Part shown: in pieces, positions 16,482-62,587 of the stretch
How positions within the stretch are numbered: the stretch's first letter is position 1
Layout of the letters: each line of letters opens with the position of its first letter
Source: Eubacterium sp.
Lineage (GTDB): Bacteria > Bacillota > Clostridia > Lachnospirales > Lachnospiraceae
Length of the DNA stretch: 64,000 bases
Direction: 5' to 3'
NCBI GenBank assembly: GCA_034089785.1
Contig: JAXDTV010000061.1
Span: 593-64,592, forward strand
The notes under the pieces: generated by a model
Databases searched by the model: none
Told to the model about the DNA's origin: nothing
The model's input: the letters and a program-made list of their open reading frames with translations, nothing else
Program-made: the position numbers and the translations under genes

Positions 16482-16482
16482 A

Positions 16483-16535: not shown

Positions 16536-16619
16536 ATTTTAAAATAACATGAGTTTCTATAGAAATTATATTCTAATAGTGCTATAATTAAGAAATGAGA
16601 ATATTTATTGGAGGGAATT

Positions 16620-17384: not shown

Positions 17385-17386
17385 AA

Positions 17387-18271: not shown

Positions 18272-18297
18272 AACATATGTTTGATAGGAGGATAAAA

Positions 18298-18798: not shown

Positions 18799-18810
18799 GA
18801 ATAATGTTAA

Positions 18811-18914: not shown

Positions 18915-18987
18915 TACGCCATTGGGGGCTCGAACCCCAGACACCCTGATTAAGAGTCAGGTGCTCTACCAACTGAGCTAATGGCGC
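18915..18987 (-). tRNA. tRNA-Lys (anticodon CTT)
   Basis: Minus-strand sequence: GCGCCATTAGCTCAGTTGGTAGAGCACCTGACTCTTAATCAGGGTGTCTGGGGTTCGAGCCCCCAATGGCGTA. It folds as a cloverleaf with anticodon loop CTCTTAA and T-loop TTCGAGC. CCA is not encoded. A GC-rich hairpin and T-run follow on the minus strand (about 18860-18912). Confidence 0.93.
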
Positions 18988-31162: not shown

Positions 31163-31236
31163 AAAAGAAGTTCATTCGTTGGAGACGGGAAACGCTTCGC
31201 GTTTAAGTCTCCAGCCGAATGGAACTTCTTTTTTTA
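31163..31236. repeat. 74-nt long-hairpin repeat, copy B (bidirectional terminator between convergent ABC genes)
   Basis: Identical to 27010-27083. It begins right after the ATPase stop and overlaps the stop codon of the minus-strand exporter gene. Confidence 0.9.
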
Positions 31237-32997: not shown

Positions 32998-34816
32998 GAG
33001 TCTCACCTCCCTCGATGTGGTCAAAGTCTACTACAGACGCCTTCTGCGCTTCCTGTGTGTGGTATACTTTGGCAAAATGTCCGTCTAGTTTCATCAATTC
33101 ATCAAAGGTACCACGCTCTACGATCTTTCCTTCCGAGAGGTAAATGATCTCGTCACAGTCCATAACAGAAGTCATGCGGTGGGCGGAGATGATCAGGGTC
33201 TTGTCATTGTAGTGTTCTTTGATGCTTGCCAGAAGTTTTTTCTCTGTATCCATATCCAGAGCAGAGGTGGAATCATCCAGGATCAGGACCGGAGAATTTT
33301 TTAACAAAGCTCTGGCAATGGAAACACGCTGTTTCTGGCCACCGGAGATACCTAATCCCCGTTCACCTACAATGGTTTCATAGCCGTCATCCAACTGCTG
33401 GATGAAGCTGTCTGCCTGGGCGTGGAGAGCACAGCGGTACATGGTTTCTTCGTCTGCTTCCGGATCTGCGTAGTCAATGTTGGATTCAATGGTATTACTG
33501 AACAAAAATACATCCTGAAATACATAGGCAAACTGGCTCCGGAGGGATTCCAGGCGGCAGTCTTTTATATCAACGCCATTGATGGTGATAGAACCGCCGG
33601 TCGTATCATGAATGCGGATCAGAGACTCTAACAATACACTTTTTCCGCTTCCTGTTCCGCCTACAACACCTATTTTTTTGCCGGCAGGAATGGACAGGCA
33701 GATGTCATCTAAAATCTTCTGGTCATCCAGTTCAATGGTTACATGGTTAAAGTTGATATCTGGTTTTTCGGTGGATGAAATTTCTTTGGTTCCGTCAGGG
33801 ATCCGGGATTCGCATGCCATGAAATTCATCATTTTCTGTCCGGATACCAGCTGCTGCTGCATCTGGAAGATCATGTTGTTGATCATGGTAATGTAGTTCA
33901 TGATCTTCAGGATATAGTCCGCACAGGCCACCAGAAATCCTACCCGCACATAGCCTTTCATAACCAGAAGGGCGCTGACACCGATACTTCCGATATAGGC
34001 AAACTGAATGATACACTTAAACACGGCATCAAAGTTAGCGGACAGTTTTACCTGCTTTACATAGGCATCCTTCAACTGGTCGTTGGAATGATCAAATTTG
34101 CTTCGTTCCTGTTCTTCATTGGTAAAAGAACGGACCAGGCGGACGGCCTCTATGTTTTCCTGTACCGTCAGGTTCATTTCACTGTTTCGCTGGCGGATCT
34201 CCCGGAAGTTCAGCATGGCTTTTTTCTTAAACTTAACTAACGCTGCGAAAAATACCGGAATCATAATGACCGGGATGATCAGCAGGTACAAGTTAATGGT
34301 TGCCAGCAGAATGACGGCCACAATAAGTACAAAAATACTGTCAAAGATATTAGGAATGATACGACAAAACATATCTTTGAACATAATGGTGTCGGAACTT
34401 AAAGTAGTCAGAAGTTCACCGGTGTTGTACTGGGAGATGGTGGCACTGTCCAAAGTCATAAGTTTATGAAATGTGGCAATACGCATATCCGTCTCCATGC
34501 GGAGACCCAGTTTCTGGTTGAGAATGTTTTTTACATAAACAAGGATCAGCTTAGTTAAAAGCAGGGTGCCGAATAAAATGGCCAAATGCCAGAATAAATT
34601 CATGGTATGAGGGGCACCGTATTTGCCTGACAGCATGAAAGAAAAAATGTTATCCTGTTGGATCTTGCTGTCTTTTATTACATAATCTACAAACAAGGCA
34701 GTGATCATTGGCAGCAGAAGATCTGCTGTCAATGCCAGGCCGCTCATAAGTTTTGCCAGAATGGACAAAGCCAGGTTCCTTTTCCAGTAGTGGAACCCAA
34801 ATTTAATTACATCCAT
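32990..34816 (-). CDS. ABC exporter, fused permease/ATPase (heterodimer partner)
   Basis: TMD plus NBD (GGTGSGKS, ISGGQKQR, ILDDSTS). It is translationally coupled to the downstream half-transporter. Confidence 0.92.
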   Translation of the reverse strand: MDVIKFGFHYWKRNLALSILAKLMSGLALTADLLLPMITALFVDYVIKDSKIQQDNIFSFMLSGKYGAPHTMNLFWHLAILFGTLLLTKLILVYVKNILNQKLGLRMETDMRIATFHKLMTLDSATISQYNTGELLTTLSSDTIMFKDMFCRIIPNIFDSIFVLIVAVILLATINLYLLIIPVIMIPVFFAALVKFKKKAMLNFREIRQRNSEMNLTVQENIEAVRLVRSFTNEEQERSKFDHSNDQLKDAYVKQVKLSANFDAVFKCIIQFAYIGSIGVSALLVMKGYVRVGFLVACADYILKIMNYITMINNMIFQMQQQLVSGQKMMNFMACESRIPDGTKEISSTEKPDINFNHVTIELDDQKILDDICLSIPAGKKIGVVGGTGSGKSVLLESLIRIHDTTGGSITINGVDIKDCRLESLRSQFAYVFQDVFLFSNTIESNIDYADPEADEETMYRCALHAQADSFIQQLDDGYETIVGERGLGISGGQKQRVSIARALLKNSPVLILDDSTSALDMDTEKKLLASIKEHYNDKTLIISAHRMTSVMDCDEIIYLSEGKIVERGTFDELMKLDGHFAKVYHTQEAQKASVVDFDHIEGGETLG

Positions 34817-34823
34817 AATTGTT

Positions 34824-37295
34824 TTACTCCTTAACTGCTAATGTAGCAGGTGGTTTGGAAAGGATACCATAAACAGGAACAATACTGATGAAGATATGGA
34901 CTGCATAGATGCAGACTAACAAAAGCAGTATGCTCCACCATGGGAAGTTCATGCTGATCTGGAGGGATGGGATGGAACTGATGAATTTGATCACACCACT
35001 GGTTACCAGCACAGCAGGCAGAGAAGTGTAACTGGTCATCAGGACCATTTCCAGCATATAAGCTTTCAAGATGCTGCCACGGGAAATTCCGATCAGGCGG
35101 TAAACCGTCAGTTCTTCGCTTCGGGATACCGCATTGGACTTGATGGTAAAGTATACCATGATCATGGAGATCAGCATAATGACAAGAGTAATAAGCTGTT
35201 TCGCATCCATATCCACGGAATGTTGTTCTTTGTATTCTTTTATTTCTGTTTCGGAAGGAATGGAAAGAGTCATTTCAAATCCTACCATGGCTCCTTTTCC
35301 CAATGCTTTTAATTGTTTTATGGTTTCAGCCGGATTATCTGTGTAAAGCCGGCATGTTTTGTTTTCAACGACCATGCTGTTTAAAGCGGTCTGAGCTCCT
35401 TTATCTGTCAGTACATAACTGTAATCTACATCATCCGGAAAGGTTCCGGCAATGGTATAGGAATTGGAATTCGTAGAATCACCGGAATCATCGATGTATT
35501 CCAGTCCAATGCCATACTGGTCGCCTACTTTCAGGTCGGCGGATTCCATGAATCCTTTTCTCAGAAGGATTTCGTTGTCTTTTAGTTTTACATCGGTGTA
35601 ACCTTTCAGTCCTTCTGCTTCCAGTTCACTGACGGTGGCAAGAGAAATACCTTTGGCGGCATTCAGTCCCAGAAGCAGAGTCTGACTGCCGAAAATATCC
35701 GGTTCTTTCGTATCACTGATACCTACAATGGTCAGCTGTATATCATAGGAACCGATCTTTATCTTGCATCCAAGGTAGGATTCCAGAGAGTCGTGGAGCA
35801 TGGACACAGCACCGTTGGAATTTTGTGCCCGCTCTAACAGTTCTTTGTCAATGACCACCTCGGAGCGTTTTTTCGGCATTTTGCCGTAGATGAGTTTGTT
35901 TTTATCCAGATGTTCTTTCGTGACAAAACTGTATTTTTCAATCATCTGGGTCAGTTTTGGCAGCTGTTTGTAGCCACTTCCTACCAGGTAGATACTGACG
36001 GACGGTAAAAAAGCCATATCGCCGTATTTTCCACTGGAAAGGTCTTTGGTCACATAGTTGTTAATGGCATCCATATCCTCATAGGACAGCCTTAGGTTGG
36101 ATTTGGTAAAGTCCAGGTTTACATAGTGGGAATCAGTGCCCCGGATACGGGTGTCATCGGTGATGCGGCTGTCTGCAAACTGTGCTGTGGTAATGGAAAG
36201 CAGCACTGCCGTTACCAGGAGGATACCGATCACAAAGGCTTGTTTTTTACCCATCATCCGTATGTTTTCCATGGCCATATGCCAGATCTCCCGCAGTGGA
36301 AGACGAGACTTTCCTTTACTCTTCATTTTAGAAAGGTGATAGTCAAAATTGGCCACATCCTCCAAGTTGATGTGAGGCCGTTCCTCATCTCGGATCTCCA
36401 CGCCGTTTTCCACACCCTCGATCAGGATGTTGTATGGCATATTGTTCTGGATGTAAAGTTTGTCGTCTTTCCAGGCAAGAGTCAGTTCGATCTTCTTTGG
36501 CTCCTCGTTCTTTGGGAAAAACATATGGAACTGTCCCATGTCGCTTTCCAGGCTGGAGGAGTTCATTTCTTTTAAGTAAATATTGGAATCGTCGCTTCGC
36601 TCATAAGAATCCAGAGGGATGTTCTTTTCATCCCGGACTACCTTGCCGTCACAGATCTCAATAATGCGGTCTGCGAAGAAATGGGCAATCCTTTTTTCGT
36701 GGGTTACCAGCAGTACCAGACATTCTTTGGAAATATTTTTCAGAATGCTCATGGTACGGAGAGTGTTTTCTTCATCCAGGTTGCCGGTAGGCTCGTCGGC
36801 AAAGATCACATCCGGGGATTTTACCAAAGCTCTGGCAATGGAAACACGCTGTTTCTGGCCGCCGGAGAGTTTGGAAACTTGTTTTTTCTTGTATTTGGAA
36901 ATACCAAGCACATCTAATACATAGTCAATCCGCTCTTCCTTTTCTTCCTCGCTGATATCGTAGCGGTTCAGAGCCAGGCGGATATTGTAAGCTACCGTGT
37001 AATCCTGCAGCAGGTAGTAGTTCTGGAACACATAGTCAAAATGATCGTTCCGGATAGGCTCCATAACTTTAGGATTGTAATTTTTGATGGTTTTTCCATC
37101 AATGTCAATGACGCCGCCGGAAAAAGTATCAATACCACCGATGGTATTTAACAGAGTGGTTTTTCCGGAGCCACTTTCGCCCAAGATACATACAAGGCCG
37201 GTGTTTCCAAGCTCCAGGTTGATGTCATTTAAAACATGCTGTTCATTTTTTCGGCCCTTATTATAGAATTTATGTAAGTTTGTTATTTTAATCAT
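34824..37295 (-). CDS. MacB-like ABC transporter, N-terminal ATPase fused to an FtsX-type permease with a large extracytoplasmic domain
   Basis: NBD ([28 protein letters not shown]), one TM, an extracellular region of about 300 aa, and three C-terminal TMs of FtsX type. Confidence 0.88.
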
Positions 37296-39526
37296 GAATT
37301 CAACCGTCCTTTCAAAATGCGATTAAAGGATCCTACTGTCAAGAGGATCAGCAGGATGTTGTAGAGGATAAAAAGGATATAAGTAAGTGGGGAATAATAC
37401 CACATGATATCCTCAACAATACTAACTCCTGCCAGACGCAGAATCCACATAATTACAATAGTTACAAGAACGGCAATGGCCGTATATAAAAGCATCTCAA
37501 AATAACTGATAGAGCGGATGATACGCATCTTCATTCCGATGAATTTCAGCACAAAATAATCTTTGATCCGGATCTTCATTAAGGAGCGCAGGATCAGGAT
37601 TTCAGCAAACAGGATTGCTAACAGTCCGAAAGCGGAAATACAGATGATGATAAGACGCTGGTTTACCAGATCTTCCTTATATTCTGTAGCACTGACGCGG
37701 AATGTGCTGATGGCATCATACCCAAGTTTATTTAATTTTTTGATCACAGAATCGGTGACAGCATAACTGGCGATATAAACAGAAGCCTGGTCACTGTTTT
37801 TAGTGTAGTAGCGATCGAAAAATTCCTGGCTGACTTCCATAATGCCGGCCGTGTATTCGTGAAAACTGCCGTCAATGCTGACAGTACCAGTCTGGATTTC
37901 GCCAATTTCTTTACCCTGATCGTCTTTTTCCTGATATGTAAATTCAGTCTCACCGGAAGGCTTCTCTTCCAGTTTCCCGGAAATACGGACGGTATTGCCT
38001 TCAAGGTCGTCGGCAATTACCGGGATCAGGTCCGGTTTGCATTTGTAATCTTCCAGTGATTCGTCGTAGGAATACAACAGGCGGTATATACCGGAGTCGA
38101 CCCGCATGGAAAGCATGCGGCACATATCTTTGGAGAAATAAACCTGGTCAGACGGTTCTTTCAACAGACCTACGACCTTTAATTTGGCTCCGTAATACTG
38201 GTCATTTCCCCAGATATTATGGGACTTAAAGTAGGTCATGATCTCCTGGCCGTATTTACTTCCGCTTTGAGAGTATAAAACAATCTCATTCCGGGACTTT
38301 GGAAGGCGTCCTTTGGAAAGGTCGGCTTCCGTAATACAGTCTGTGGACTGCATCAGCCGTTTTTCATTCAAAAACTGAACGGAAGTTGCTACTTTATCGC
38401 TGTCCCAGGACTGGGCATAAAGATATTTGTAATCAAAGCCCTCATCCATGTAGAAATTGATATCGTTTGCCAGGTCGCAGGTATCGACTTTGGCTACACC
38501 GGACAGTTTGGAAATCGCTTCCTTGTCTTCCTTTACAATGTCTTTTCCGTCTTTTCTCTTTATCACCAGACGGGTATCGTCTTCCCGGTAGAAAGTATCC
38601 TGGGAATACTGCCTGGTAGCGTAGTCATCTTTGTGCATAAACAGTTCTCCGATAAAGAGAAATGATACGCTGGAGATGATCAGAAGAAATACGATAAACA
38701 AAGCAGCTCTTGCCTTCTGAGTCTGGAAGTTACGGCGGGCAAACAAACCGGCGATCTGGTTCTGACGCTTGAAGGTAACGGCTTTGTGTTCTGGTGCCGG
38801 AATCGGTTCTTTGAAAGAATCGGATTCCTCTTCCCGGGAGTTTACCGGCACATCCGATATGATCTGTCCGTCATGAACCCGGACCTTTCTTGTTACATAA
38901 GGTTCTGCCTGATCGTAGTTGTGGGTGACCATGATCACCAGTTTGTCTTTGGAAAGTTCTTTTAAAAGCTGTATGATCTGGTTACCTGTCTCGCTGTCCA
39001 GGTTGCCGGTAGGCTCATCTGCAACGATGATCTCTGTGTTTTTGGCAAGAGCTCTGGCAATGGATAATCGCTGTTTCTGGCCGCTGGAAAGTTCTGAAGC
39101 ACGGTGGGTTTCATAACCAGCCAGACCTACCTGAGCCAGATATTTCATAGCTGTCTCTCTGGCATCTTTTTTCTCAACGCCAAGGATCAAAAGAGCACTC
39201 ATCACATTGTCCAGTGCGGTGTAGTGTCCTACCAGACTGTAGTCCTGGAAAATATATCCGATCTTATTGCGGCGGAATGCTTCCCAGTCCTGATCGTCAT
39301 ACTGAAAAGTAGGTTCTCCATCTACGAACATTTCCCCTTCATCGAAAGTGTCCATACCGCCGATGATATTGAGCAGTGTGGATTTACCACTGCCGCTTTC
39401 ACCGGTAATGGCTACAAATTCGCCCATGGAAAATTCCAGATTGATCTTTCTCAGTGCTTGAGTTACTGCTGTTTCCGAGTAATAACTTTTACTGATATTT
39501 TGTAGTCTAATTTTTACTTGTTCCAT
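37292..39526 (-). CDS. MacB-like ABC transporter, ATPase-FtsX fusion (paralog)
   Basis: Same architecture ([28 protein letters not shown]). It has an ATGA overlap with the downstream paralog. Confidence 0.88.
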   Translation of the reverse strand: MEQVKIRLQNISKSYYSETAVTQALRKINLEFSMGEFVAITGESGSGKSTLLNIIGGMDTFDEGEMFVDGEPTFQYDDQDWEAFRRNKIGYIFQDYSLVGHYTALDNVMSALLILGVEKKDARETAMKYLAQVGLAGYETHRASELSSGQKQRLSIARALAKNTEIIVADEPTGNLDSETGNQIIQLLKELSKDKLVIMVTHNYDQAEPYVTRKVRVHDGQIISDVPVNSREEESDSFKEPIPAPEHKAVTFKRQNQIAGLFARRNFQTQKARAALFIVFLLIISSVSFLFIGELFMHKDDYATRQYSQDTFYREDDTRLVIKRKDGKDIVKEDKEAISKLSGVAKVDTCDLANDINFYMDEGFDYKYLYAQSWDSDKVATSVQFLNEKRLMQSTDCITEADLSKGRLPKSRNEIVLYSQSGSKYGQEIMTYFKSHNIWGNDQYYGAKLKVVGLLKEPSDQVYFSKDMCRMLSMRVDSGIYRLLYSYDESLEDYKCKPDLIPVIADDLEGNTVRISGKLEEKPSGETEFTYQEKDDQGKEIGEIQTGTVSIDGSFHEYTAGIMEVSQEFFDRYYTKNSDQASVYIASYAVTDSVIKKLNKLGYDAISTFRVSATEYKEDLVNQRLIIICISAFGLLAILFAEILILRSLMKIRIKDYFVLKFIGMKMRIIRSISYFEMLLYTAIAVLVTIVIMWILRLAGVSIVEDIMWYYSPLTYILFILYNILLILLTVGSFNRILKGRLNS

Positions 39527-41616: not shown

Positions 41617-41772
41617 AACACCATAATTTGATTTCTAATTTATATTTTAATCTATGGCTTGGGAGTGTGTCAAGAATACCTTGGTTTTTTTGCAAATTTC
41701 TTCTTATATTTATGGTTGAATCAAAATTTTTGTAGTATAATGAGGGGCAAAAGACAGAAAGAAGGAAAGATT

Positions 41773-42537
41773 ATGAAGGCAAATTATCATACGCATACAA
41801 AGCGGTGCGGCCACGCATCGGGAGAAGATAGAGAATATGTAGAAAGTGCCATTGAGGCAGGACTTGAGGTGCTGGGATTTGCGGATCACTGTCCGTTTGT
41901 GTATCCGGATGGTTATGTGTCGGGGATTCGGCTGACACCGGCGGAGGTAGATGGGTATTTTGCTTCGCTGGAGGGACTGAAAAAAGAGTATGAAAAAGAG
42001 ATCCGGATCTACATAGGATTTGAGGCAGAGTATCTGCCGGCATTGATCGAAAAGCAGAAAGAACTGCTTTCCGGTTACCCTCTGGATTACATGATCCAGG
42101 GACAGCATTTTCTGGGACCGGACAAGGAGCAGGTATATGTGGGACATCCGTTCGAAGAGGAGGCTTATCTGGCGGAGTACGCCCGTCTGGCTATTGAGGG
42201 AATCAAATCCGGGGACTATTTGTATCTGGCGCATCCGGATCTTCCTCATTTTCTGGGTGACGATGAGACATACCGCCAGTATATGCTGCCGGTATGTGAA
42301 GCATTGAAGGAAAAGAACAAGCCGGCAGAGATCAATATACTGGGACTTGCGGATCAGAGACACTATCCGGTGGACCGCTTCTGGAAACTGGCAAAAGAAG
42401 TGGGAGTTACAGCTGTTTTGGGCGTGGATGCTCATTCACCGGCGCAGCTTTTGAACCGGGAAGGGATTAAACAAGGAGAGCAGTGGGCCGAAAAGTACGG
42501 TATCACGCTGTTGGAGAAAATGCCGGAACTGGCGTAG
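41773..42537 (+). CDS. PHP-family histidinol-phosphatase-like protein (HisJ/HisK family)
   Basis: A GAAGGAAAG SD precedes the ATG at 41773. The N-terminus MKANYHTHTKRCGHA is the typical PHP metal-binding motif, and GFADHCPF is present. Confidence 0.85.
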   Translation: MKANYHTHTKRCGHASGEDREYVESAIEAGLEVLGFADHCPFVYPDGYVSGIRLTPAEVDGYFASLEGLKKEYEKEIRIYIGFEAEYLPALIEKQKELLSGYPLDYMIQGQHFLGPDKEQVYVGHPFEEEAYLAEYARLAIEGIKSGDYLYLAHPDLPHFLGDDETYRQYMLPVCEALKEKNKPAEINILGLADQRHYPVDRFWKLAKEVGVTAVLGVDAHSPAQLLNREGIKQGEQWAEKYGITLLEKMPELA

Positions 42538-52897: not shown

Positions 52898-54238
52898 TCA
52901 ACTCCGGCGCCTGGATAACATAACGGCGTCAGCAAGAACGGCCTGTTCGCCATTGACAAAACGCAGGATCAAAGAGTAGGTTCCGCTGTGGACCTCGGAC
53001 AGAGGAACGGCAACGGTGTAAGCTTCGGTTACTTCCGGTGTTTCTTTGTCGATATACGCTGAAAAATCCATCTGGAAAATAGCATCAAATTTGGTAAGCA
53101 GAATTTCCTGAATGATCTGCTGATGCATTGTCACTGACAGCGTGTCTCCCAGTAGTGTGATGCGGACACCATAATCTGTATAAAGAGCGTCTTTGGTGAT
53201 GGAGTCAGTGGTCTGGCTGGAGGCACCTTTGTGAAGTTTCGGACCAGTAAGCCAGCCCAGAGTAAGATACGTGTCGGGTGCCTGGTTAAACCGTTCACAG
53301 AATTCATCCAGTGTCAGATCTTTCAGCCTGTCAGCCATTTCCTCCAGAGTAAACAAAGGAATGCCTTCCGGAGCCACAGGAAAGTCAGCAAGAATCTTAG
53401 GAACTTCGCCGGTGGCTGCATTCATTTCCAGAATCGAATCTTCCTCCCGCAGAGCATGTTCGTGGCTCTGGATGTAAAAGACTTTCTCAGCCGGGGCATA
53501 ACTTAATTTGTCAATGCCGCTTCCAACGTAATAGGTACTGTAAGTAAAACCATAGAGGTCTACCACATGAAAATGGGTCGGTGCCTTGGAAAGGTAATTT
53601 GGCGTCATATAGACATTTTCCACAACGGCAAGAAACCCGTCAGAAAGGTCTGCTGTCTGATCCATAGAGGCAGGCAGATCCAGATAATAGCGGATGTCGC
53701 CGGCACGGTCTTTGACAGCCAGATAATGCAGAACATCATCCTGGTACAGATCATAAGGAAGGGATCCTGTGGTAACAATGATCTCTCTGGAAGCAGTTTC
53801 TGTCTCTGTTTCATCCAGAAGGGACACGGTGATCCGGTTCGCCTCCCCGGCATACAGTCCGAAAACCGGAACAACATGGACGGTGGTTTCTTCTGTCAAA
53901 GTACGGGAAAAAGAGTTTTCCTCCTGGTGGCCGTGAACTGTATAAGATACATGGCACGGCGTCTCACTGTGAAATACGATTAGCGCAAACAAAGGAGCTC
54001 GTCCAAAAGGATTCAAAAGAACTTTAGGATTGTCCAGTGTCAGGGAAAGATCCGGCAGATACGCACGCAAATCCATATATCCCTTTCTTGCCTGTTCCGT
54101 ATAAGGAATGTTTGTTTCAAAAATACTTTCTACAGACTGGTTCAGTCTAAGGCGGTTTAAACTCATAAAATCAATCTTAAGTGGGGACAGATGTGCGCTG
54201 GCCCATGACTTAAGTTTTGATGTCATAGTTTCAATCAT
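52898..54238 (-). CDS. Arylsulfotransferase N-terminal-domain protein lacking the recognisable catalytic propeller motifs (ASST paralog, function unknown)
   Basis: TTGGAGA lies 6 nt before the ATG at 54238. LNPFGRAPLFALIVFHSETPCHVSYTVHG...VHVVPVFGLYAGEANRITVSLLDE aligns with VNPYGEAPLTALVLFETKKACRIRVTVIG...KHRVPVLGLYPKRKNPVRIELLDE of the 60500-62506 protein. I could not find the downstream W.H.NS / QQHS / FDNHW motifs. Confidence 0.7.
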   Translation of the reverse strand: MIETMTSKLKSWASAHLSPLKIDFMSLNRLRLNQSVESIFETNIPYTEQARKGYMDLRAYLPDLSLTLDNPKVLLNPFGRAPLFALIVFHSETPCHVSYTVHGHQEENSFSRTLTEETTVHVVPVFGLYAGEANRITVSLLDETETETASREIIVTTGSLPYDLYQDDVLHYLAVKDRAGDIRYYLDLPASMDQTADLSDGFLAVVENVYMTPNYLSKAPTHFHVVDLYGFTYSTYYVGSGIDKLSYAPAEKVFYIQSHEHALREEDSILEMNAATGEVPKILADFPVAPEGIPLFTLEEMADRLKDLTLDEFCERFNQAPDTYLTLGWLTGPKLHKGASSQTTDSITKDALYTDYGVRITLLGDTLSVTMHQQIIQEILLTKFDAIFQMDFSAYIDKETPEVTEAYTVAVPLSEVHSGTYSLILRFVNGEQAVLADAVMLSRRRS

Positions 54239-54433
54239 ACATAATCTCCAATCTTTATATAGTTTTTTATTCATATATCCGTTCAAAATCGGATTTGTTG
54301 ATTCGTTCTTAGCACAACAACTCAACCATATTATAATACCAAAACTGTGATAAATCCATGTTTTTTCTAATATTTATCATTTTATTGACAAAAAAATAGA
54401 CCATTTTTTGCGGTAAATAATAGGAAACAAGTT

Positions 54434-55750
54434 ATGATCTGGAGGATGAAAAGGTTGAAAAAGTTGAAAACATTGATTTTTTCTATGATAAAAGTGGGAT
54501 GTATGGGATTTGGGGGAGGCAATGCGCTGATCCCTGTCATTGAAGAAGAGGCGGTAAAAGACAAAAAACTGGTGTCCTGTCAGGAGTATGACCGGACCAT
54601 TCTGGCAGCCACCCTGACACCGGGGGCACTGCCGGTGGAGCTGGCGGCGGGGATCGGCTATGCATCCTGTGGAAAGAAAGGAATGGTAGCGGGAAGTGTG
54701 GCTATGGCACTGCCGGGAGCGTTGCTTACCATGCTTTTGCTTACGCTGATGGGACAGGCAGGAGAGGGAGTGCTGGAGCAGATCCAGTATGCATCGGTAG
54801 GAGTCACCGCTGTGATCATGTGCCTTTTGACCCAGTATATTCTGGAAACCATCAAGGGCTGCTACAATAAAGAAAAGAAGTGTCTGGCTCTTGTCAGTAT
54901 CCTGATTGTGTTCGCTTTGACAGGAGCAAAGACGGTGGCAAAAATAGCCGGATACAGTGGTGATCTGGTGCCTCGTTTTTCCACCATACAGATCCTTGTA
55001 CTGGCCATGGCGGGAAGTGCTGTGTACTCCTTGAAACGGAAAAAACCTAGAAAAAGTACGAGAAGGAAGCAAGGTCCGGCTAAAAGTATACTGGAAACAC
55101 TGGGCGTCTGGGTGGCGTTTGTGCTGGTGTTGTGGATCCCCGGCATGTATCTCTTTGGCAGCGACAGTGTGTGGTTTGGTCTGAAAGGCATTGTCTCTTC
55201 CCTTCTTTCTTTTGGCGGGGGAGATGCGTATCTGACCATTGCGGACGGAATGTTTGTACCGGATTACATAAGTACCAATGAGTTTTATAACCACCTGGTA
55301 CTGCTTGTAAATATATTGCCGGGATCCATTCTGTGCAAAACCATGACAGGAATCGGCTTTTTCTTCGGAAGCCAGCTGGGAGGTATGACAGGAGGAATCA
55401 GTCTGGCGCTTCTTGGATTTGGAGCCAGTGTGGCAGCTTCCGGCGGTGTGTTCCAGGTGATGTATCTGCTGGGAGACTGGCTTTCAGGAAAACGCATTTT
55501 TTATATTATCAAAAAAACACTGCGAATCGTGGTATCAGGTTTGCTGCTTACGGTAATGGCGTCTCTTATCTTTTCCAGTATGGAAATGAATGCCAATGAG
55601 GCCCTTCCACGGTGCACGGTTCTTTTGCTTACTTTGGGGATTTACGGTGTAAATCTCATCCTGCATCTTTGCTTCCGGTGCAGGACAAAGGTCCTTCTTT
55701 TTGTTTCTCTTTTGCTTTCTATGGGATTTTGTAATATACTAGGGGTATGA
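54434..55750 (+). CDS. CHR (chromate ion transporter) family protein, two-domain form
   Basis: 438-aa polytopic protein. One CHR signature is near the N-terminus (KVGCMGFGGGNALIPVIEEE) and a second lies in the C-terminal half (SFGGGDAYLTIADGMFV). Confidence 0.85.
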   Translation: MIWRMKRLKKLKTLIFSMIKVGCMGFGGGNALIPVIEEEAVKDKKLVSCQEYDRTILAATLTPGALPVELAAGIGYASCGKKGMVAGSVAMALPGALLTMLLLTLMGQAGEGVLEQIQYASVGVTAVIMCLLTQYILETIKGCYNKEKKCLALVSILIVFALTGAKTVAKIAGYSGDLVPRFSTIQILVLAMAGSAVYSLKRKKPRKSTRRKQGPAKSILETLGVWVAFVLVLWIPGMYLFGSDSVWFGLKGIVSSLLSFGGGDAYLTIADGMFVPDYISTNEFYNHLVLLVNILPGSILCKTMTGIGFFFGSQLGGMTGGISLALLGFGASVAASGGVFQVMYLLGDWLSGKRIFYIIKKTLRIVVSGLLLTVMASLIFSSMEMNANEALPRCTVLLLTLGIYGVNLILHLCFRCRTKVLLFVSLLLSMGFCNILGV

Positions 55751-55773
55751 CAAAAAGATGAGAGGTTAAAAAA

Positions 55774-56328
55774 ATGCATATCTGGAAACATTTTTCCACT
55801 ATTACGAGACATAGACACAAAGTGATCGTTCACTGCGCCAAAGCAGGAATTTTCTGGCAGGGGCTCAGGCACGATCTGTCCAAATATTCGCCTACGGAGT
55901 TTATCGCAGGGGCCAAGAACTATCTGGGGGACAAAAGCCCCAACGAAAAAGAGCGGGAGAGGTATGGCTTTTCCAGAGCCTGGCTGCATCACCAGGGACG
56001 GAACAAACACCATTTTGAGTACTGGGTGGATTACAGTCAGGAGTTAAACCGGAAAGAGCCCATAGAGATGCCTACCAAGTATCTGATCGAAATGTTCTGC
56101 GACCGGGTGGCGGCAAGTAAAATATATTATGGCAAGGATTATGACCAGGCCAAGCCGTTTGAATACTTTGATAAAGGACGGAAGCGCCGGTGGATGCATC
56201 CGGAGACATCCCGCAAATTAGAGGAACTCCTTGTGATGCTGCGGGACAAAGGGGAAGACGAGACTTTTTATTATATCAAGCATGTGGTAAAGGTGCAGGG
56301 AAAGAAGGACAAGGCTCATTGGAAGTAA
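55774..56328 (+). CDS. DUF5662-like protein (His/Asp-rich, possible metal-dependent hydrolase fold)
   Basis: 184-aa soluble ORF: WKHFSTITRHRHKVIVHCAKAGIFWQGLRHDLSKYSPTEF...AWLHHQGRNKHHFEYW. I recall this pattern from DUF5662 proteins, which are sometimes mislabelled as catalase. Confidence 0.7.
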   Translation: MHIWKHFSTITRHRHKVIVHCAKAGIFWQGLRHDLSKYSPTEFIAGAKNYLGDKSPNEKERERYGFSRAWLHHQGRNKHHFEYWVDYSQELNRKEPIEMPTKYLIEMFCDRVAASKIYYGKDYDQAKPFEYFDKGRKRRWMHPETSRKLEELLVMLRDKGEDETFYYIKHVVKVQGKKDKAHWK

Positions 56329-57677
56329 CGGATTTTAGCAAAGGCAGTGTAAAGAAAAATATAGTACGGCTGGCTGTGCCTATGACTCTGGCACAGCTTA
56401 TTAATGTGCTGTACAACATTGTGGACCGGATCTACATCGGCCGGCTGGAGCAGGGCAATGCCCTAGAACTCACAGGTCTGGGCGTATGTCTTCCGGTCAT
56501 TTCTATCATCATTGCATTTGCCAATCTGATCGGCATGGGTGGAGCCCCTCTTTTTTCCATACAGCGGGGGAAAAAGGATGACGAGGAAGCTGCCGGGATT
56601 CTGGGCAACTGCTTTATCATGCTCTTGTTATGCGGTGTTTTCCTGATGATGGTGATTCTGGCTGTCAAAAAGCCGGTGTTGTATTTGCTGGGGGCCAGTG
56701 ACCAGACTTATCTGTATGCGGACCAGTACCTGACCATCTATCTGTTTGGAACGGTGTTTGTGATGCTGAGTCTGGGACTAAATCAGTTTATCAGTGCCCA
56801 AGGATTTGGCACCACAGGAATGCTTACCATCGTCATCGGGGCAGGACTTAATATTGTGCTGGATCCTGTTTTTATTTACGGACTTCATATGGGAGTGCAG
56901 GGAGCCGCTGTGGCTACAGTGATCTCCCAGTTTGTTTCGGCGGTCTGGACCCTTCGTTTTCTTCTGGGAAAAAAGGCGGTGGTCCGGCTGCAGAAAAACT
57001 ATATGCCCCTGCAGAGAAAACGGATAGGCCGCATACTGGGACTGGGAGCCAGCAGTTTTACCATGGGAGTGACGAATTCCCTGGTGCAGATGGTATGTAA
57101 CGCCACCCTACAGACCATGGGCGGTGATATTTATGTGGGAGTTATGACCATTATCAATTCCATCCGGGAGGTGGCGCAGATGCCGGTGTCGGGCATCAGT
57201 GCAGGAGCACAGCCGGTTATGGGATATAATTATGGTGCAGGCAGATTTGACAGAGTAAAGGAAAGTATCCATTTTATGACTCTTACTTTGTTTGGTTATA
57301 CGGCCCTTGCCTGGGGCGTGATCTTTTTGTTCCCAAAATTCTTTTTGGGGATCTTTAGTACCGATGCATCGGTTATCAGTGCCGGTGTAAAATGTCTGCA
57401 TATTTATTTCTTTGGATTTTTTATGATGGCGCTGCAGTTTACCGGCCAGACAACGTTTACCGGCCTGGGATTGAGCCGCAGAGCGATCTTTTTTTCTATT
57501 TTCCGCAAGGTGATCATCGTGGTGCCTCTGACCCTGATCCTGCCCCATGTGGCAGGCCTTGGCGTCATGGGAGTTTTTCTGGCGGAACCAATCTCTAATT
57601 TCATTGGCGGCAGTGCCTGTTACGCTGTCATGTATTTTACTGTCCTCAAAAATGTCGAATTTGAAACAAAAAAATGA
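56319..57677 (+). CDS. MATE family efflux transporter
   Basis: The conserved MATE N-terminus DFSKGSVKKNIVRLAVPMTLAQLINVLYNIVDRIYIG requires a start upstream of it. The in-frame TTG at 56319, after GAAGGACAAGG, overlaps the DUF5662 stop by 10 nt. The protein has 12 TMs. Confidence 0.9.
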   Translation: MEVTDFSKGSVKKNIVRLAVPMTLAQLINVLYNIVDRIYIGRLEQGNALELTGLGVCLPVISIIIAFANLIGMGGAPLFSIQRGKKDDEEAAGILGNCFIMLLLCGVFLMMVILAVKKPVLYLLGASDQTYLYADQYLTIYLFGTVFVMLSLGLNQFISAQGFGTTGMLTIVIGAGLNIVLDPVFIYGLHMGVQGAAVATVISQFVSAVWTLRFLLGKKAVVRLQKNYMPLQRKRIGRILGLGASSFTMGVTNSLVQMVCNATLQTMGGDIYVGVMTIINSIREVAQMPVSGISAGAQPVMGYNYGAGRFDRVKESIHFMTLTLFGYTALAWGVIFLFPKFFLGIFSTDASVISAGVKCLHIYFFGFFMMALQFTGQTTFTGLGLSRRAIFFSIFRKVIIVVPLTLILPHVAGLGVMGVFLAEPISNFIGGSACYAVMYFTVLKNVEFETKK

Positions 57678-57746
57678 CAAAAACTCTTCGTATTCTTTCT
57701 ACAACGGCACGAGAAAGTGCCTTGTAAGAAAGGATGGTAAGAGAAA

Positions 57747-58628
57747 ATGGATCATTTGGACCTGTTGGAAAACAAAAGTGTTCACATATTAAGAGAAGCG
57801 TATAGTCAGTTAGGAAATCTATGCATGCTGTGGTCGATCGGAAAAGACTCAACGGTTCTTTTATGGCTGGCAAGGAAGGCTTTTTTTGGTCATGTACCCA
57901 TTCCTCTTGTGCATATAGATACTCATTTTAAAATCCCGGAGATGATTGAATACAGAGACCGTCTGGCAGCAGAATGGAATCTGGATATGATTTATGGAGA
58001 AAATACAGAGGCTTTGTCCTGCCATGCTACCTTCCCGGAAGGAAATGCGTCACATATTGACTGCTGTATGAAGTTAAAGACAGAAGCCCTGACCAATACA
58101 TTGAATGCGAAATGGCCGAGATATCGTTTTAACCATGAAAAGGGCATTTACGAAAAGGATACTCACTGTGAACCCTATACCGGCGTGATCGTAGGAGCCA
58201 GAGCGGATGAGGAAGGAAGCCGTTCCAAGGAGCGGTATTTTTCCCCGAGAGATAAGAACAACGACTGGGATGTAGGAGACCAGCCGCCGGAGTTCTGGAA
58301 TCAGTATAAGACGGACTGGGCACCAGGCACTCATGTGCGTGTGCATCCTCTCCTTGACTGGACGGAGTTAGATGTGTGGGAATACATTGAGAGGGAGAAT
58401 ATTCCGGTAGTTCCTTTGTACTTTGACCAGGGAAACGGAACACGCTATCGTTCTCTGGGATGCGGTCCTTGTACAACACCGGTACAGTCAACGGCTAAAA
58501 ATGTCCATGAAGTGATCGAAGAATTGAAAACCGGCAAATTTGCAAACATTGCAGAGCGCTCCGGCCGCGCCCAGGACAAAGAAGGCGGCGGTGGTTTGGA
58601 AGAACTTCGGCGAAACGGTTATATGTAA
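57747..58628 (+). CDS. cysD: Sulfate adenylyltransferase subunit 2
   Basis: PAPS-reductase-like ATP-PPase fold ([12 protein letters not shown]). CysD C-terminus [11 protein letters not shown]...[10 protein letters not shown]. Confidence 0.95.
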
Positions 58629-58646
58629 GGAGGTCTGGCTGACAAG

Positions 58647-60494
58647 ATGAAAAAAGAAGATATGAACATAGTAATTGTAGGACATGTGGATCACGGAAAA
58701 AGTACTTTGATGGGAAGACTTCTGGCAGATACAGATTCTCTGCCGGAGGGCAAGTTAGAGCAGGTAAAAGAGACTTGCCGGCGCAACGCCAAACCTTTTG
58801 AATATGCCTTTTTGCTGGATGCTTTGAAAGATGAGCAGGCTCAGGGGATTACCATTGATACGGCGCGTTGTTTTTTTAAGACGGAAAAAAGAGATTACAT
58901 TATTCTGGATGCACCGGGACATATTGAGTTTTTGAAAAATATGATCACAGGAGCTTCCAGAGCTGAGGCCGCACTTTTGATGATCGACGCCAAAGAGGGT
59001 GTTCAGGAGAATTCCAGACGCCACGCATATATGCTTTCTATGCTGGGAATCCACCAGATCGCCGTCGTTATCAACAAGATGGACCTGGTGGATTACAGCC
59101 AGGATGTGTATGAAAAAGTAAAGAACGAATATCTGGAGTTTCTGAAACAGATCCAGATTGAACCGAAATTTGTTCTCCCGGTCAGCTCTTTTATGGGAGA
59201 AAATATTGTGAAAAAAAGTGACAAAATGCCATGGTACCAGGGAGACTGTGTGCTGGAGGTACTGGATCATTTTGAGTGTGAAAAGCCTCATGAACACCAG
59301 GCCTTTCGTATGCCGGTACAGGATGTGTACAAGTTTACCGGCAACGGAGATGACCGGCGTATCGTGGCAGGTACGGTAGAGACCGGCAAAATCCGTCCCG
59401 GGGATGAGGTTGTCTTTTATCCATCCGGAAAACGAAGCCATGTAAAAAATATTGAGGTGTTCCACGCCGAAACGCCAAAAGAGGCAGTGCCGGGAATGGC
59501 TACAGGATTTACCCTGGAAGAGCAGATTTATATTAAACGAGGCGAACTGATGTGTATTGCAGGGCAGCAGGAGCCGAAAAAGGGAACTCGGATCCAGGCT
59601 AATCTGTTCTGGCTTGGCAGAGAAAATCTGGTAACAGGCAAATCCTACCTGTTGAAAATTGGCAGTGAAAAGGTGCGGATGGAAGTGGAGTCCATCCTTC
59701 GGGTCATTGATTCCTCTAACCTGAATTCCCAGGAGACAAAAGACTATGTAGGCAAAAATGAAGTGGCCCAGTGTGTGTTGAAAACAGACCGGCCTATTGC
59801 CTATGATGTGGTAAAAGATAATGCCGGTACCAGCCGGTTTGTCATTGTAGATGATTATGAGATCGCCGGCGGCGGTATCGTTACAGACCAGCTTCCGGAA
59901 ACACCGGCAAAGAATGAAAATGTTGTATGGCACGATGGCAAGGTTTCAAAACAGGAAACCCAGGCGGTGTTAGGACAGTCCGGACTGGTAGTCTGGTTTA
60001 CAGGGCTGTCGGGAGCCGGTAAATCTACGATTGCCGTGGAAGTTGAGAAGCAATTGATAGAGAGAAAGAGGGCATGCTACCGTCTGGACGGAGATAATCT
60101 GCGGTTTGGCATTAACTCGGACCTTGGTTTTACCGATGAGGACCGGCAGGAGAATGTGCGTCGTATCGCTGAGGTGGCGGCACTGTTCCAGGACGCAGGC
60201 ATGATCACCCTGGTATCCTGCATTTCACCATTCAGGGAAAAACGACAGTTTGCCAGAGAGCGGGTGCCGGAAGGCCGGTTTTTGGAAGTCTATGTAAAAG
60301 CAGATATCAACACCTGTATGGAGCGTGATCCGAAGGGATTGTACAAAAAGCAAATCCAGAATTTTACCGGAAAAGATTCTGCTTACGAAGAACCACACAA
60401 TCCGGAACTGGTGCTGGATACCGTAAATAAGACAGTAGAGGAATGTGCAGCAGAGGTATTAGACCAGATCCTATTATATGTAAGGGAGGAATAG
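58647..60494 (+). CDS. cysNC: Bifunctional sulfate adenylyltransferase subunit 1 (GTPase) / adenylyl-sulfate kinase
   Basis: N-terminal EF-Tu-like GTPase ([18 protein letters not shown]) fused to a C-terminal APS kinase ([22 protein letters not shown]). Confidence 0.95.
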
Positions 60495-60499
60495 TGTCC

Positions 60500-62506
60500 A
60501 TGAGTAAAATACAACGGGCATGGGACAAAGCATGGGAATGGGCAGATATAAAGTTCAGTAAAAAGATTCTTCTCAGCAAATTTGCAGAAGGCGGCACGCT
60601 GACTCAGTGGAAGGCGGAAAAACTGCAAAAAAGGGTAAAAGAAATGTGGCAGGAGCAGCAAAAGGCACAGTTTTTGTGGAAAAAGACCAATGTGCCCGTG
60701 TTGCCTGTGCCGGCATTGAAATCCCGCTGTGTGGATGCCTGCCTGGAAGAGATCCTGCAAAGTGGCAGATATCAGTTTCCGAATCTGTTTATGATGGTAA
60801 ATCCATATGGGGAGGCACCGCTGACAGCCCTTGTTTTATTTGAGACGAAAAAGGCCTGCAGGATCCGGGTAACGGTGATCGGTAAAAGTGCCTGCACGGA
60901 TTTTTCCTATGAACTGCCGGAGCAGAAAAAGCATCGTGTGCCGGTTCTTGGCCTGTATCCTAAGCGGAAAAATCCGGTGCGGATCGAGCTGCTGGATGAA
61001 CAAGGACAGATGACGGACAGCCGTATTGTGGAGATCCGCACCAGGGCACTGCCGAGAGATCTGCGAGGCGTGGTAGAAGTGAAGAAAATGGATAAAAAGC
61101 CTGCTTTTAAAAACATCCTGATTACCGGAGGGGTGAATTTGAAGAGCATGGTGTTTGACCGTCAGGGAGAGATTCGTTATTATCTGCGCAGGCAGGTAAA
61201 GGGATATGGTATTTTCCCAACAGAAAAAGGTCATTTTGTCTATATGGAAAAGGCCATGTGCAACACGACCTGGACCAATCCCCAGTGTGCCGTGTATGAA
61301 GACATGGATTATCTGGGAAGGATCCACAAGACATTTCTGACAGATAACGGACTGCATCATACGGTGGAAGCAAAACAGGGGGGCAACCTTCTGGTGGGAA
61401 CCAATACCGTAGGGACACAGTATTGCGAGGATGCCATGGAAGAAATTGACTGCAACACCGGAGAGGTAGTGTGGCAGCTGCATTTTGAGGATTTATTTGG
61501 CGGGGCTCACCAGGATATTACAGACTGGGCCCACATTAATTCAGCCCAGTATGATCCGGCTTCGCACAGCATGCTTTGTTCCCTGCGGAATGTACACGGA
61601 GTTGTATGCGTAGACTATGACACCAGGGAATTAAAATGGATCTTGTCGGACCCTGCGTTCTGGCAGGGAACACCGGTGGAAGACAAGGTACTGAAACCAG
61701 AGGGGGAAATACCTTGGTTTTATCAGCAGCATTCCGCGTTCTGGATGGAGGAAGATCTGGATGGAAATCCGGATACAAGGCAGATGATCCTGTTTGATAA
61801 CCATTGGGAAAAACGACGCCATGCGCCATCCTTTGACGGTGATATGAAACACAGCTATATATCGATTTATTCCATCAACGAAAAAGAGCGTACCGTATCC
61901 TTGTGGAAACGATTCCCATGCCGCAAATCCAAGATCCGCGGAAACGGTATTTATGTGGCAGACCGTCACAGATTGTATTCGATGGAAGGAGCTTTTGCCA
62001 AGAAGTACGAAGATGCAGTAGGCGGCGTGTATGAATATGACTACGATACCGGGAAAAAGGTAAGCGAGATCCTGATCAAACCGGGATTTTTCAGAGCGTA
62101 TGAATTCAAGCCGGAGATGGAAGATCTGTGCCAGCCTCAAAACCAGGAAACACCTTATCTTTTGGGACAGCTGAAAAGACCCCATGTGTTGACAGAAGAA
62201 GAGAAAGAAAAAGTGTCCTTTGAAGGCAGCGGACGGATCCTGAAAAGCATTTTGAAATACCAGATGCGGGAAAGCTGTTTCTTCGTAAGGGAATTAGATC
62301 ATGAGTTAAAAGATGTATATTTCCATGGGAAAAAACATGACTACGGCATTAACTTTGAAGACACAGAGCAGGTGTACGGTGCATATTTTGGAGGCAGCCA
62401 GCATTATCTGTGTATCCAGCTGGATCAACTGCCAAAAGACCGATATGAGATTTATGTAAGATATAAAGATGAATTTGGAAAGACAGGGAAGTATATATCC
62501 CTGTAA
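60500..62506 (+). CDS. Arylsulfotransferase (ASST) family protein, no signal peptide
   Basis: GGGAGGA lies 9 nt before the ATG at 60500. It has the ASST N-domain (VNPYGEAPLTALVLFE) and propeller motifs (DWAHINSAQYDP, WFYQQHSAFW, ILFDNHWEKRR). The N-terminal 80 aa or so are hydrophilic and helical, with no hydrophobic leader. Confidence 0.85.
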   Translation: MSKIQRAWDKAWEWADIKFSKKILLSKFAEGGTLTQWKAEKLQKRVKEMWQEQQKAQFLWKKTNVPVLPVPALKSRCVDACLEEILQSGRYQFPNLFMMVNPYGEAPLTALVLFETKKACRIRVTVIGKSACTDFSYELPEQKKHRVPVLGLYPKRKNPVRIELLDEQGQMTDSRIVEIRTRALPRDLRGVVEVKKMDKKPAFKNILITGGVNLKSMVFDRQGEIRYYLRRQVKGYGIFPTEKGHFVYMEKAMCNTTWTNPQCAVYEDMDYLGRIHKTFLTDNGLHHTVEAKQGGNLLVGTNTVGTQYCEDAMEEIDCNTGEVVWQLHFEDLFGGAHQDITDWAHINSAQYDPASHSMLCSLRNVHGVVCVDYDTRELKWILSDPAFWQGTPVEDKVLKPEGEIPWFYQQHSAFWMEEDLDGNPDTRQMILFDNHWEKRRHAPSFDGDMKHSYISIYSINEKERTVSLWKRFPCRKSKIRGNGIYVADRHRLYSMEGAFAKKYEDAVGGVYEYDYDTGKKVSEILIKPGFFRAYEFKPEMEDLCQPQNQETPYLLGQLKRPHVLTEEEKEKVSFEGSGRILKSILKYQMRESCFFVRELDHELKDVYFHGKKHDYGINFEDTEQVYGAYFGGSQHYLCIQLDQLPKDRYEIYVRYKDEFGKTGKYISL

Positions 62507-62510: not shown

Positions 62511-62587
62511 AAAAAAAATAACCAATCAGCGAAAAACATTGATTCGCGAAGCGAATCCCCGTTTTGAGTCGATTGGTTATTTTTTTA
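62511..62587. terminator. Bidirectional compound terminator (ASST operon / symporter)
   Basis: The outer stem AATAACCAATC...GATTGGTTATT is flanked by A8 and T7 runs. The inner perfect hairpin is GATTCGC-gaa-GCGAATC. Confidence 0.75.

Follow-up and report, generated by a model that had tools for sequence, protein, structure and literature searches.

A predicted cytoplasmic ASST-like sulfotransferase subfamily linked to sulfate activation genes in gut Clostridia

Introduction

Why should an operon that makes 3'-phosphoadenosine 5'-phosphosulfate (PAPS) end in a gene for an enzyme of the aryl sulfate sulfotransferase (ASST) type, and from which donor would such an enzyme take its sulfuryl group? 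The question is raised by a stretch of 64,000 nucleotides of DNA from Eubacterium sp. (Lachnospiraceae; GenBank assembly GCA_034089785.1, contig JAXDTV010000061.1, positions 593 to 64,592 of the forward strand; the whole stretch is called the window below), in which six genes on the plus strand encode, in order, a CHR-family transporter, a DUF5662 protein, a MATE-family transporter, CysD, a CysN-CysC fusion and an ASST-like protein. The three genes at the centre of the question are the following.

57747..58628, plus strand: CysD, small subunit of ATP sulfurylase (PF01507; NF003587, 350.5 bits against a cut-off of 195)
58647..60494, plus strand: CysN, the GTPase subunit of ATP sulfurylase, fused to CysC, 615 aa (TIGR02034, TIGR00455)
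60500..62506, plus strand: predicted cytoplasmic ASST-like sulfotransferase, 668 aa (PF17425 and PF05935, 2.8e-49)

In a July 2026 review all bacterial aryl sulfate sulfotransferases are described as PAPS-independent, with physiological roles that are poorly understood, and in a December 2025 study their physiological donors are stated to be unknown. The families Sulfotransfer_1-5 are the whole scope of a July 2026 survey of gut sulfotransferases, and our literature search found no paper that reports a cytoplasmic ASST subfamily or a link of ASST genes with cysC or cysDN. Here we present evidence which gives good support to the existence of a cytoplasmic ASST subfamily linked to sulfate activation, and we weigh whether its members may draw on PAPS directly.

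Results

Linkage of the ASST-like gene to APS kinase

A degenerate-pattern scan with one genome kept per species gave 45 related loci (individual loci and contigs carry L numbers), in which all open reading frames (ORFs) were clustered and the gene orders read. The loci belong to Clostridia named Eubacterium, Roseburia, Lachnoclostridium or Lachnospiraceae, with E. xylanophilum ATCC 35991 and Clostridium sp. AF37-5 among the isolates. The ASST protein of the nearest genome, Clostridium sp. CAG:167, is 96% identical to that of the window, the same species as the window recurs in human-gut metagenome contigs (L062-L065), and the 90% cluster of the window protein has 685 member sequences.

A gene for the kinase of adenosine 5'-phosphosulfate (APS) was found immediately upstream of the ASST-like gene in 42/44 assessable genomes (missing only in L028 and L033; L040 begins at a contig edge and was not counted). 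It is a stand-alone gene for a protein of about 195 aa in 40 loci, with gaps of 3-42 nt and a canonical APS kinase product (PF01583, 3e-62; TIGR00455, 239 bits), and it is fused to cysN in the window, L001 and L004. The pair cysD-cysN stands before cysC in 32 loci, and ten loci keep cysC-ASST with neither cysD nor cysN directly upstream. The outer flanks vary by lineage: AraD, the dead ASST paralogue, a Na/Ala symporter, CHR, DUF5662 and MATE are seen in one group, and RadA or SpmAB with a small membrane protein in another; among the 45 loci CHR is present in 8, MATE in 9, all of one lineage, and DUF5662 in 14. As the adjacency to cysC holds while both the flanks and cysDN vary, the selected unit is cysC-ASST, in most cases accompanied by cysD-cysN, rather than the string of six genes. 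Within this unit the ASST-like protein is only 42-57% identical across the related loci, far below the 88-100% of CysD. In two loci (L039:9860-11886 and L045) the ASST-like gene is split into two ORFs by a frameshift, by decay to a pseudogene or by an assembly error.

An earlier note on this DNA had remarked on the coupling of an ASST to PAPS synthesis as unexpected, had proposed a survey of gene neighbourhoods and had treated all six genes as one system. In the survey the coupling turned out to be conserved and to recur in independent gene orders (see below), and the system contracted to an invariant core of cysC-ASST, with or without cysD-cysN.

Fold, active site and predicted location of the ASST-like protein

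The ASST-like protein consists of an N-terminal extension of about 95 aa, an Ig-like domain, a 6-bladed beta-propeller and a C-terminal beta domain of about 130 aa, and its AlphaFold2 model (mean predicted local distance difference test score, pLDDT, 86.8; predicted template modelling score 0.86) has a helical extension and places the C-terminal beta domain as an addition. Both the Ig-like beta-sandwich and the propeller that characterise ASSTs are recognised past their cut-offs (PF17425, 64 bits; PF05935, 168.5 bits); no NCBIfam model matches. A Foldseek search with the model returned E. coli AssT at the top (3ELQ, 5e-26, about 20% identity; also 4P04, E about 1e-25) and Cpz4 (9KF4) next.

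The active site of the E. coli enzyme (EcAST) comprises His436, which forms the sulfohistidine, with His252, His356, Asn358, Arg374 and Thr501 (July 2026 review), the last being a sulfuryl-coordinating residue reported to be conserved in all published enzymes. By profile alignment H286, H345, N347, R363 and H411 of the window protein correspond to His252, His356, Asn358, Arg374 and His436, and all five are invariant in the window protein and 25 aligned close relatives (41-64% identity to it, except one 96% copy). Since all five mapped residues are invariant, the ping-pong sulfohistidine machinery is, as judged from the alignment, intact. Thr501 is not retained: its place is taken by an invariant arginine, R480 (HMMER profile alignment and MAFFT), and R439 is also conserved in the cytoplasmic subfamily. 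In secreted relatives position 480 is still T or S.

No hydrophobic N-terminal segment was found by a hydrophobicity scan in the window protein or 25 close homologues, and the N-terminus is strongly basic; the KD12 value is at most 1.9 in the cytoplasmic copies versus more than 2.4 in secreted relatives, in which the same scan flags signal or lipoprotein peptides. Because it carries no export signal of the kind that ASSTs have, the window protein should remain in the cytoplasm, the site of PAPS synthesis. The plain label ASST which the earlier note had given it was thus too wide, as by its sequence the protein falls in a cytoplasmic subfamily of its own, in which one active-site residue is changed.

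Three classes of the wider family and their linkage to cys genes

A HMMER scan of 1.84 billion representatives gave 1625 relatives at E <= 0.001, 251 of them at E <= 1e-30, and neighbourhoods were read for distant members together with 80 metagenome loci (from a scan seeded by the small alignment A5). Secreted or lipoprotein copies form one class, often in tandem arrays of 2-4, with T or S at position 480 and never near cys genes. Cytoplasmic catalytic copies form another, with the signature HHNRH at positions 286, 345, 347, 363 and 411 and HRRR at positions 366, 439, 440 and 480, which was present in 26/26 cysC-linked proteins and 0/13 secreted representatives. The arrays of two to four secreted or lipoprotein paralogues are spread over gut metagenome contigs L079-L129 (for example L106:5507-14682).

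Distant members of the cytoplasmic class (25-38% identity to the window protein) are linked to cys genes in several gene orders: cysD-cysNC-CHR-response regulator-histidine kinase-ASST in L056, from an organism of 32% GC whose four shared proteins are 33-38% identical to those of the window; histidine kinase-ASST-cysD-cysNC in L116; ASST-cysD in L078; and cysD-cysN-cysC-short ASST-(peptidase)-ASST in L121. The order ASST-fn3-aprA-cysD-cysN-Rrf2 was found in four loci (L111, L113, L120 and L122, for example L113:13459-18764), where the aprA-like gene encodes an adenylyl-sulfate reductase alpha subunit (NF005331, 957 bits) and aprA-cysD-cysN-Rrf2 looks like an assimilatory APS-reduction cluster without cysC.

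A third, full-length class (clade A6) is degenerate, with His286, His345 and His411 replaced; it aligns to alignment A1 in hhalign with probability 100 at 25% identity. It heads the order ASSTlike-cysD-cysNC-cysQ-CHR, an operon for PAPS synthesis and the disposal of adenosine 3',5'-bisphosphate, in human-gut metagenome contigs (L132, L133, L137, L138, L139 and L141, for example L133:9845-17020), 14-17 nt upstream of cysD in most of these six loci and 165 nt in L138, and cysQ was seen in four of the six (L133, L137, L138 and L141; TIGR01331, 243.7 bits against a cut-off of 228.8).

After dereplication of the metagenome copies at 90% identity, cys linkage was counted for 12/13 cytoplasmic R480 catalytic copies, 3/4 degenerate copies and 0/21 secreted copies. 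Linkage differed significantly between copies without a signal and secreted copies (Fisher's exact test, p = 3e-8), and between R480 (12/13) and non-R480 catalytic copies (0/22; p = 1.6e-8).

Side contexts were also recorded. HRRR-type ASST-like genes, single or in tandem, lie in or next to teichoic-acid-type clusters (L052:423-4397, L053:10-11267 and L054) with a TagD-like cytidylyltransferase, TagF-like glycerophosphotransferases, a TagGH-like ABC exporter and a HAD phosphatase, which hints that some family members modify cell-wall polymers. Pairs of an OmpR-type response regulator and a HAMP-HisKA kinase adjoin ASST-like genes in L056:4775-6953, L116:27-1355, L059:9144-11302 and L060/L061, the copy being of the cytoplasmic HRRR type in L060/L061 and of the lipoprotein type in L059. 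Since two-component genes adjoin ASST-like genes in several unrelated contigs, expression induced by an external signal is suggested.

The sulfate activation genes

CysD and both parts of the fusion passed their curated models (for the fusion, TIGR02034 at 364.6 bits with a cut-off of 336.1, and apsK TIGR00455 at 228.5 bits with a cut-off of 138.7), and the fusion carries the P-loop GLSGAGKST and the LDGDN motif. Over its CysC part it shares 68-69% identity with the separate CysC proteins of relatives. The CysN of relatives is about 595 aa long and ends in a degenerate APS-kinase-like tail (P-loop GPDGTGKK, no LDGDN, apsK 40 bits against the cut-off of 138.7; examples are L003:7546-9333 and L035:7500-9290), with a genuine CysC encoded alongside; the tail is reminiscent of a kinase-like domain with an allosteric role in fungal ATP sulfurylases. 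The window gene has no such pseudo-kinase tail, its CysN core continuing directly into CysC-like sequence. Read from these sequences, the window gene is a recent in-frame joining that removed the tail, NodQ-like in form but derived and peculiar to the species group; the NodQ-type fusion described in the earlier note is thus present, and it is a derived state, relatives having a separate CysC.

CysD with CysN-CysC supplies PAPS to a sulfotransferase in Sinorhizobium (NodP/NodQ with NodH) and in mycobacteria (CysDNC with Stf). Unlike in those systems, the fusion of the window appears recent and lineage-specific, and the partner transferase is of another fold.

Operon layout and partner genes

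The remaining features around the module are listed here.

52898..54325, minus strand: truncated ASST paralogue (ASSTup), 475 aa, divergently transcribed (PF17425 and a weak PF05935 match)
54309..54337, plus strand: promoter-like site 5' of the CHR gene, TTAGCA-17-TATAAT (consensus scan, 10/12 positions match)
54434..55750, plus strand: divergent CHR-family membrane transporter, candidate sulfate importer (PF02417, 1.9e-30, 106.6 bits)
55774..56328, plus strand: DUF5662 protein (PF18907, 1.7e-41)
56319..57677, plus strand: MATE-family efflux transporter, possible product exporter (PF01554, 6.7e-45; TIGR00797, 196 bits against a cut-off of 147)
62512..62586, no strand: bidirectional intrinsic terminator between the ASST-like gene and a convergent SSF symporter gene (hairpin folding)

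All six ORFs were verified at these coordinates, with distances of 23, -10, 69, 18 and 5 nt between successive genes; for MATE the start codon at 56319 is a TTG, and the true start may lie a few codons away. The final codons of cysNC, which ends 5 nt before the ASST-like ATG, contain the Shine-Dalgarno sequence (AGGGAGGA) of the next gene, and the ASST-like gene is translationally coupled to the preceding cys genes. The terminator is a 75-nt hairpin with an A-run before and a U-run after it (-32.5 kcal/mol, z = -8.1; 0/200 shuffles fold as well), and terminator-like matches inside the operon are weak and no more numerous than in shuffled sequence (17 versus 13.2 +/- 4.3 expected). In the 69-nt gap between MATE and cysD a consensus scan found no promoter-like site comparable to the one upstream of CHR. 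The layout, family assignments, gaps and strong terminator of the earlier note were therefore borne out by ORF coordinates, profile scores and folding.

So was its statement that none of the six products is a canonical PAPS-dependent sulfotransferase: at E <= 0.01 neither they nor the upstream paralogue match Sulfotransfer_1-5, the families of the alpha/beta fold with 5'-phosphosulfate-binding (5'-PSB) and 3'-phosphate-binding (3'-PB) motifs. Likewise a scan of 40 large ORFs from the remainder of the window, which did not extend to ORFs overlapping one of these on the opposite strand or in another frame, turned up no cysH, sulfite reductase or cysK, nor cysE. An Rfam scan of the window found no riboswitch, S-box or T-box, its only match being a single tRNA gene (18915-18987, minus strand); control of that kind, which would have pointed to assimilation, was thus discarded.

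The paralogue ASSTup, which the earlier inventory had overlooked, is without H286, H345, R363 and the entire H411 region, and so is catalytically degenerate. Its gene is intact in 10 related loci, and a similar short ASST gene (476 aa) directly follows cysC in L121.

The CHR protein scores well under the cut-off of the chromate-efflux model (TIGR00937, 67.7 bits against 171.7), and the ChrA and ChrB equivalogs give about 56 against 250, with PF02417 matched in two stretches; on these profile scores it is a divergent subfamily. CHR homologues (33-43% identity) adjoin cysD-cysNC in L056 and cysQ in L132, L133 and L137, and since CHR recurs with cys genes in three different arrangements it is probably part of the module. 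As chromate is a sulfate analogue that enters cells through sulfate systems, uptake of sulfate by CHR is plausible; of the importer role claimed for it in the earlier note, membership of the module has thus gained evidence, and the direction and substrate of transport are argued by analogy. A role of the MATE protein as exporter of a sulfated product is only a suggestion.

The DUF5662 protein is probably a bystander in the same transcription unit and not part of the system; its family has more than 8000 proteins, in unrelated gene contexts elsewhere. Our literature search found no paper mentioning it. The family is very widespread in Clostridia, at 65-70% identity across many taxa, and its predicted fold is all-alpha. 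A cluster of histidines is invariant (H6, H13, H15, H33, H72, H73, H79 and H80), some records carry the name 'catalase', and the protein looks like a metal-binding one. It was considered as a hidden phosphatase of adenosine 3',5'-bisphosphate (PAP) or a hidden sulfotransferase, and was rejected, as the AlphaFold2 model (pLDDT 81) has no significant match in the PDB, the PDB sequence matches are noise and the neighbourhoods of this huge family are unrelated. A PHP-domain protein (41659-42537) was rejected as a PAP phosphatase, its best PDB relatives being histidinol phosphatases.

Discussion

The reading we favour, to which we give a probability of roughly 0.5, is that the ASST-like enzyme takes its sulfuryl group directly from PAPS (or APS). 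Sulfate would enter the cell, with CHR as the candidate importer; CysD and CysN would make APS and the CysC domain PAPS; the ASST-like enzyme would then move the sulfuryl group from PAPS (possibly from APS in some relatives) onto His411 to give a sulfohistidine, and pass it on to a cytoplasmic acceptor. In the lineage of the window the MATE pump may export the product, and the truncated dead paralogue upstream would be a non-catalytic partner.

Direct use of PAPS is argued for by the tightest partner being an APS kinase, which is retained where cysDN is absent. To our knowledge PAPS is the only product of APS kinase. There is a precedent in the saccharomicin cluster, where Sam35, a CysC encoded beside Sam10 without cysD or cysN, boosts the PAPS supply and so serves a sulfotransferase alone; the ten loci with cysC-ASST only are parallel to it, although Sam10 has the canonical fold with 5'-PSB and 3'-PB motifs. 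That cysC marks a need for PAPS beyond APS reduction is indicated by close cysD-cysN orthologues which pair with aprA and Rrf2 without cysC. No canonical sulfotransferase or carrier-forming enzyme lies nearby in any arrangement examined, and the arginines in place of the Thr/Ser of exported aryl-sulfate enzymes would fit a more anionic donor. PAPS use, one of two options left by the earlier note, is hence the one preferred here. Sam10 and Nbc48 had been considered as PAPS-using enzymes of the ASST type and were set aside, both being canonical sulfotransferases, as was ErSULT of E. ramulus, an unrelated Sulfotransfer_3 enzyme.

Several observations weigh against this reading. Every biochemically tested ASST is PAPS-independent: BvASST was not sulfonated by PAPS and gave no product with it (December 2025 study), and the Eubacterium A-44 enzyme did not use it (July 2026 review), these negative results in the literature concerning exported ASSTs only. 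No PAPS-binding motif or domain was recognised in the ASST-like protein; R480 and the other specificity positions are read from alignments at 25-35% identity, and the export-signal call comes from a hydrophobicity window scan, not SignalP. Moreover, HRRR-type catalytic genes lie near assimilatory aprA-cysD-cysN without cysC in L111, L113, L120 and L122, the dead full-length clade stands upstream of cysD-cysNC-cysQ-CHR, so that cys linkage alone does not require sulfotransfer, and the upstream paralogue of the window has lost its catalytic histidines yet sits by the cys module.

PAPS might alternatively be consumed by a canonical sulfotransferase encoded elsewhere, which would sulfate a phenolic carrier from which the ASST-like enzyme, itself PAPS-independent, would move sulfate to the acceptor. 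Such a relay has a model in the two-step sulfation of liponucleoside antibiotics, where an ASST-type enzyme (Cpz4 or LipB) acts inside the cell with Cpz8, a PAPS-dependent sulfotransferase, and Cpz6, a type III polyketide synthase (PKS), so that the pathway ultimately depends on PAPS. The physiological role of Cpz4, itself of the ASST type, is established; it is cited together with Cpz8 and the type III PKS as a two-step system (Tang et al. 2013), and is the second-best structural match to the window protein. The rejection of PAPS by all tested ASSTs and the full conservation of the aryl-sulfate catalytic set would fit a relay as well. We nevertheless consider it unlikely, as no Sulfotransfer-family, PKS or carrier gene was found in the window or among the neighbours examined in L133, L113, L116, L121 and L056, the minimal conserved unit is only cysC with ASST, and the cytoplasmic clade differs from classical ASSTs at a residue, Thr501, that coordinates the sulfuryl group. 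Unlike the Cpz system, the window has no Cpz8-like sulfotransferase or PKS nearby and no recognisable biosynthetic cluster, its protein is about 14% identical to Cpz4, and the combination of a sulfotransferase and a type III PKS alongside is absent from the annotated related loci too.

A role in sulfur nutrition, with cysDN(C) assimilating sulfur and the ASST-like enzyme stripping sulfuryl groups off aryl sulfates that come from the host or the diet and are imported, appears improbable to us in any of its variants (release of sulfate, transfer to PAP or AMP giving PAPS or APS, or transfer of the PAPS sulfuryl group to a thiol on the way to sulfite). Aryl sulfates are known ASST donors and are present in the gut, four loci have a catalytic ASST-like gene two positions ahead of aprA-cysD-cysN-Rrf2, the cysQ of the L133-type cassette would be equally expected for PAPS reduction, and two-component sensors directly upstream of the ASST-like gene in L056 and L116, or flanking it in L059 and L060/L061, suggest an external inducer. 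The tightest partner is however cysC and not cysDN, and salvage of free sulfate leaves cysC-ASST without cysDN unexplained; an ordinary aryl sulfate could form a phosphosulfate anhydride only at a cost in energy, hydrolysis of the donor is not an activity of classical ASSTs, and no cysH, sir or cysK was found in the window or the loci examined, nor an S-box or T-box element in the window. That dead ASST-like proteins are kept in cys clusters (52898-54325, the 476-aa gene of L121 and clade A6), and that the CysN of relatives has a degenerate kinase-like domain, so that pseudo-enzymes are common in the system, could instead mean that the cytoplasmic proteins mainly bind or regulate, for example as APS/PAPS sensors or CysDNC scaffolds. 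We regard this as decidedly unlikely, as in the copy downstream of cysNC in the window and in 25 close relatives the catalytic residues are invariant despite 41-64% identity (one 96% copy apart), indicating selection for catalysis. Inherited synteny without functional meaning is very unlikely indeed: most of the 45 loci come from one related group of Clostridia, in which a single ancestral adjacency could explain many, but the adjacency outlasts a change of both flanks and the loss of cysDN, and the linkage is found again, among proteins of 25-38% identity, in no fewer than four further gene orders and is absent from all 21 dereplicated secreted copies.

Compared with the exported ASSTs (AssT/EcAST 3ELQ, BvASST and the Eubacterium A-44 enzyme), the window protein shares both Pfam domains, the fold and the catalytic set, and differs by the lack of a signal or lipoprotein peptide, by an additional basic region at the N-terminus, by an invariant Arg for Thr501 and by a conserved R439. 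Genes for exported enzymes adjoin dsbA or dsbL/I, whereas the window gene follows cysC, at about 20% identity between the proteins. In Bacteroides the cassette BT_0411-BT_0416 follows the same logic in a gut commensal, with a putative sulfate importer, cysD/N/C and one transferase; that transferase, BtSULT, is a canonical Sulfotransfer-family enzyme with cholesterol as a proven substrate, whereas that of the window has the ASST fold. The same architecture is seen in the window (CHR, cysD, cysNC and ASST-like) and is repeated in L056 and in the L133-type cassettes, the latter with cysQ in addition.

Should PAPS be the donor, the enzyme would belong to a new mechanistic class of PAPS-dependent sulfotransferase that surveys restricted to Sulfotransfer_1-5 miss. 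Our broader proposal, which we hold tentatively and rate at slightly under even odds, is that the cytoplasmic HRRR proteins make up a third mechanistic class among the sulfotransferases that depend on activated sulfate, namely beta-propeller enzymes which load the sulfuryl group of PAPS (or APS) onto a histidine before handing it over, are widespread in gut Clostridia and have dead paralogues as dedicated partner subunits. If this were true, ASST-fold enzymes would gain a defined physiological donor, abundant gut Clostridia would produce sulfated metabolites (phenols, steroids, peptides or cell-wall polymers) by a route so far unrecognised, and a new enzyme scaffold for biocatalytic sulfation would be available. 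Leads to the acceptor, though not evidence for it, are that the enzyme evolves fast, that two-component sensors adjoin ASST-like genes, and that some relatives are encoded in clusters for cell-wall polymers.

Other features of the window

The replication-origin region occupies positions 1-18800, with dnaA, dnaN, recF, gyrB and gyrA on the minus strand (1203-9669), yidC, jag, mnmE, mnmG, rsmG, parA and parB on the plus strand (10692-18271), and a change of sign in GC skew at about 8-10 kb. This puts the sulfation module on the leading strand, at a distance of about 45-52 kb from oriC. Between 27209 and 31162 are four consecutive co-directional ORFs (322, 293, 258 and 248 aa) with no Pfam match at E <= 1e-5, followed by an ABC ATPase gene and then, on the opposite strand, by four large ABC-type genes (31234-39526).

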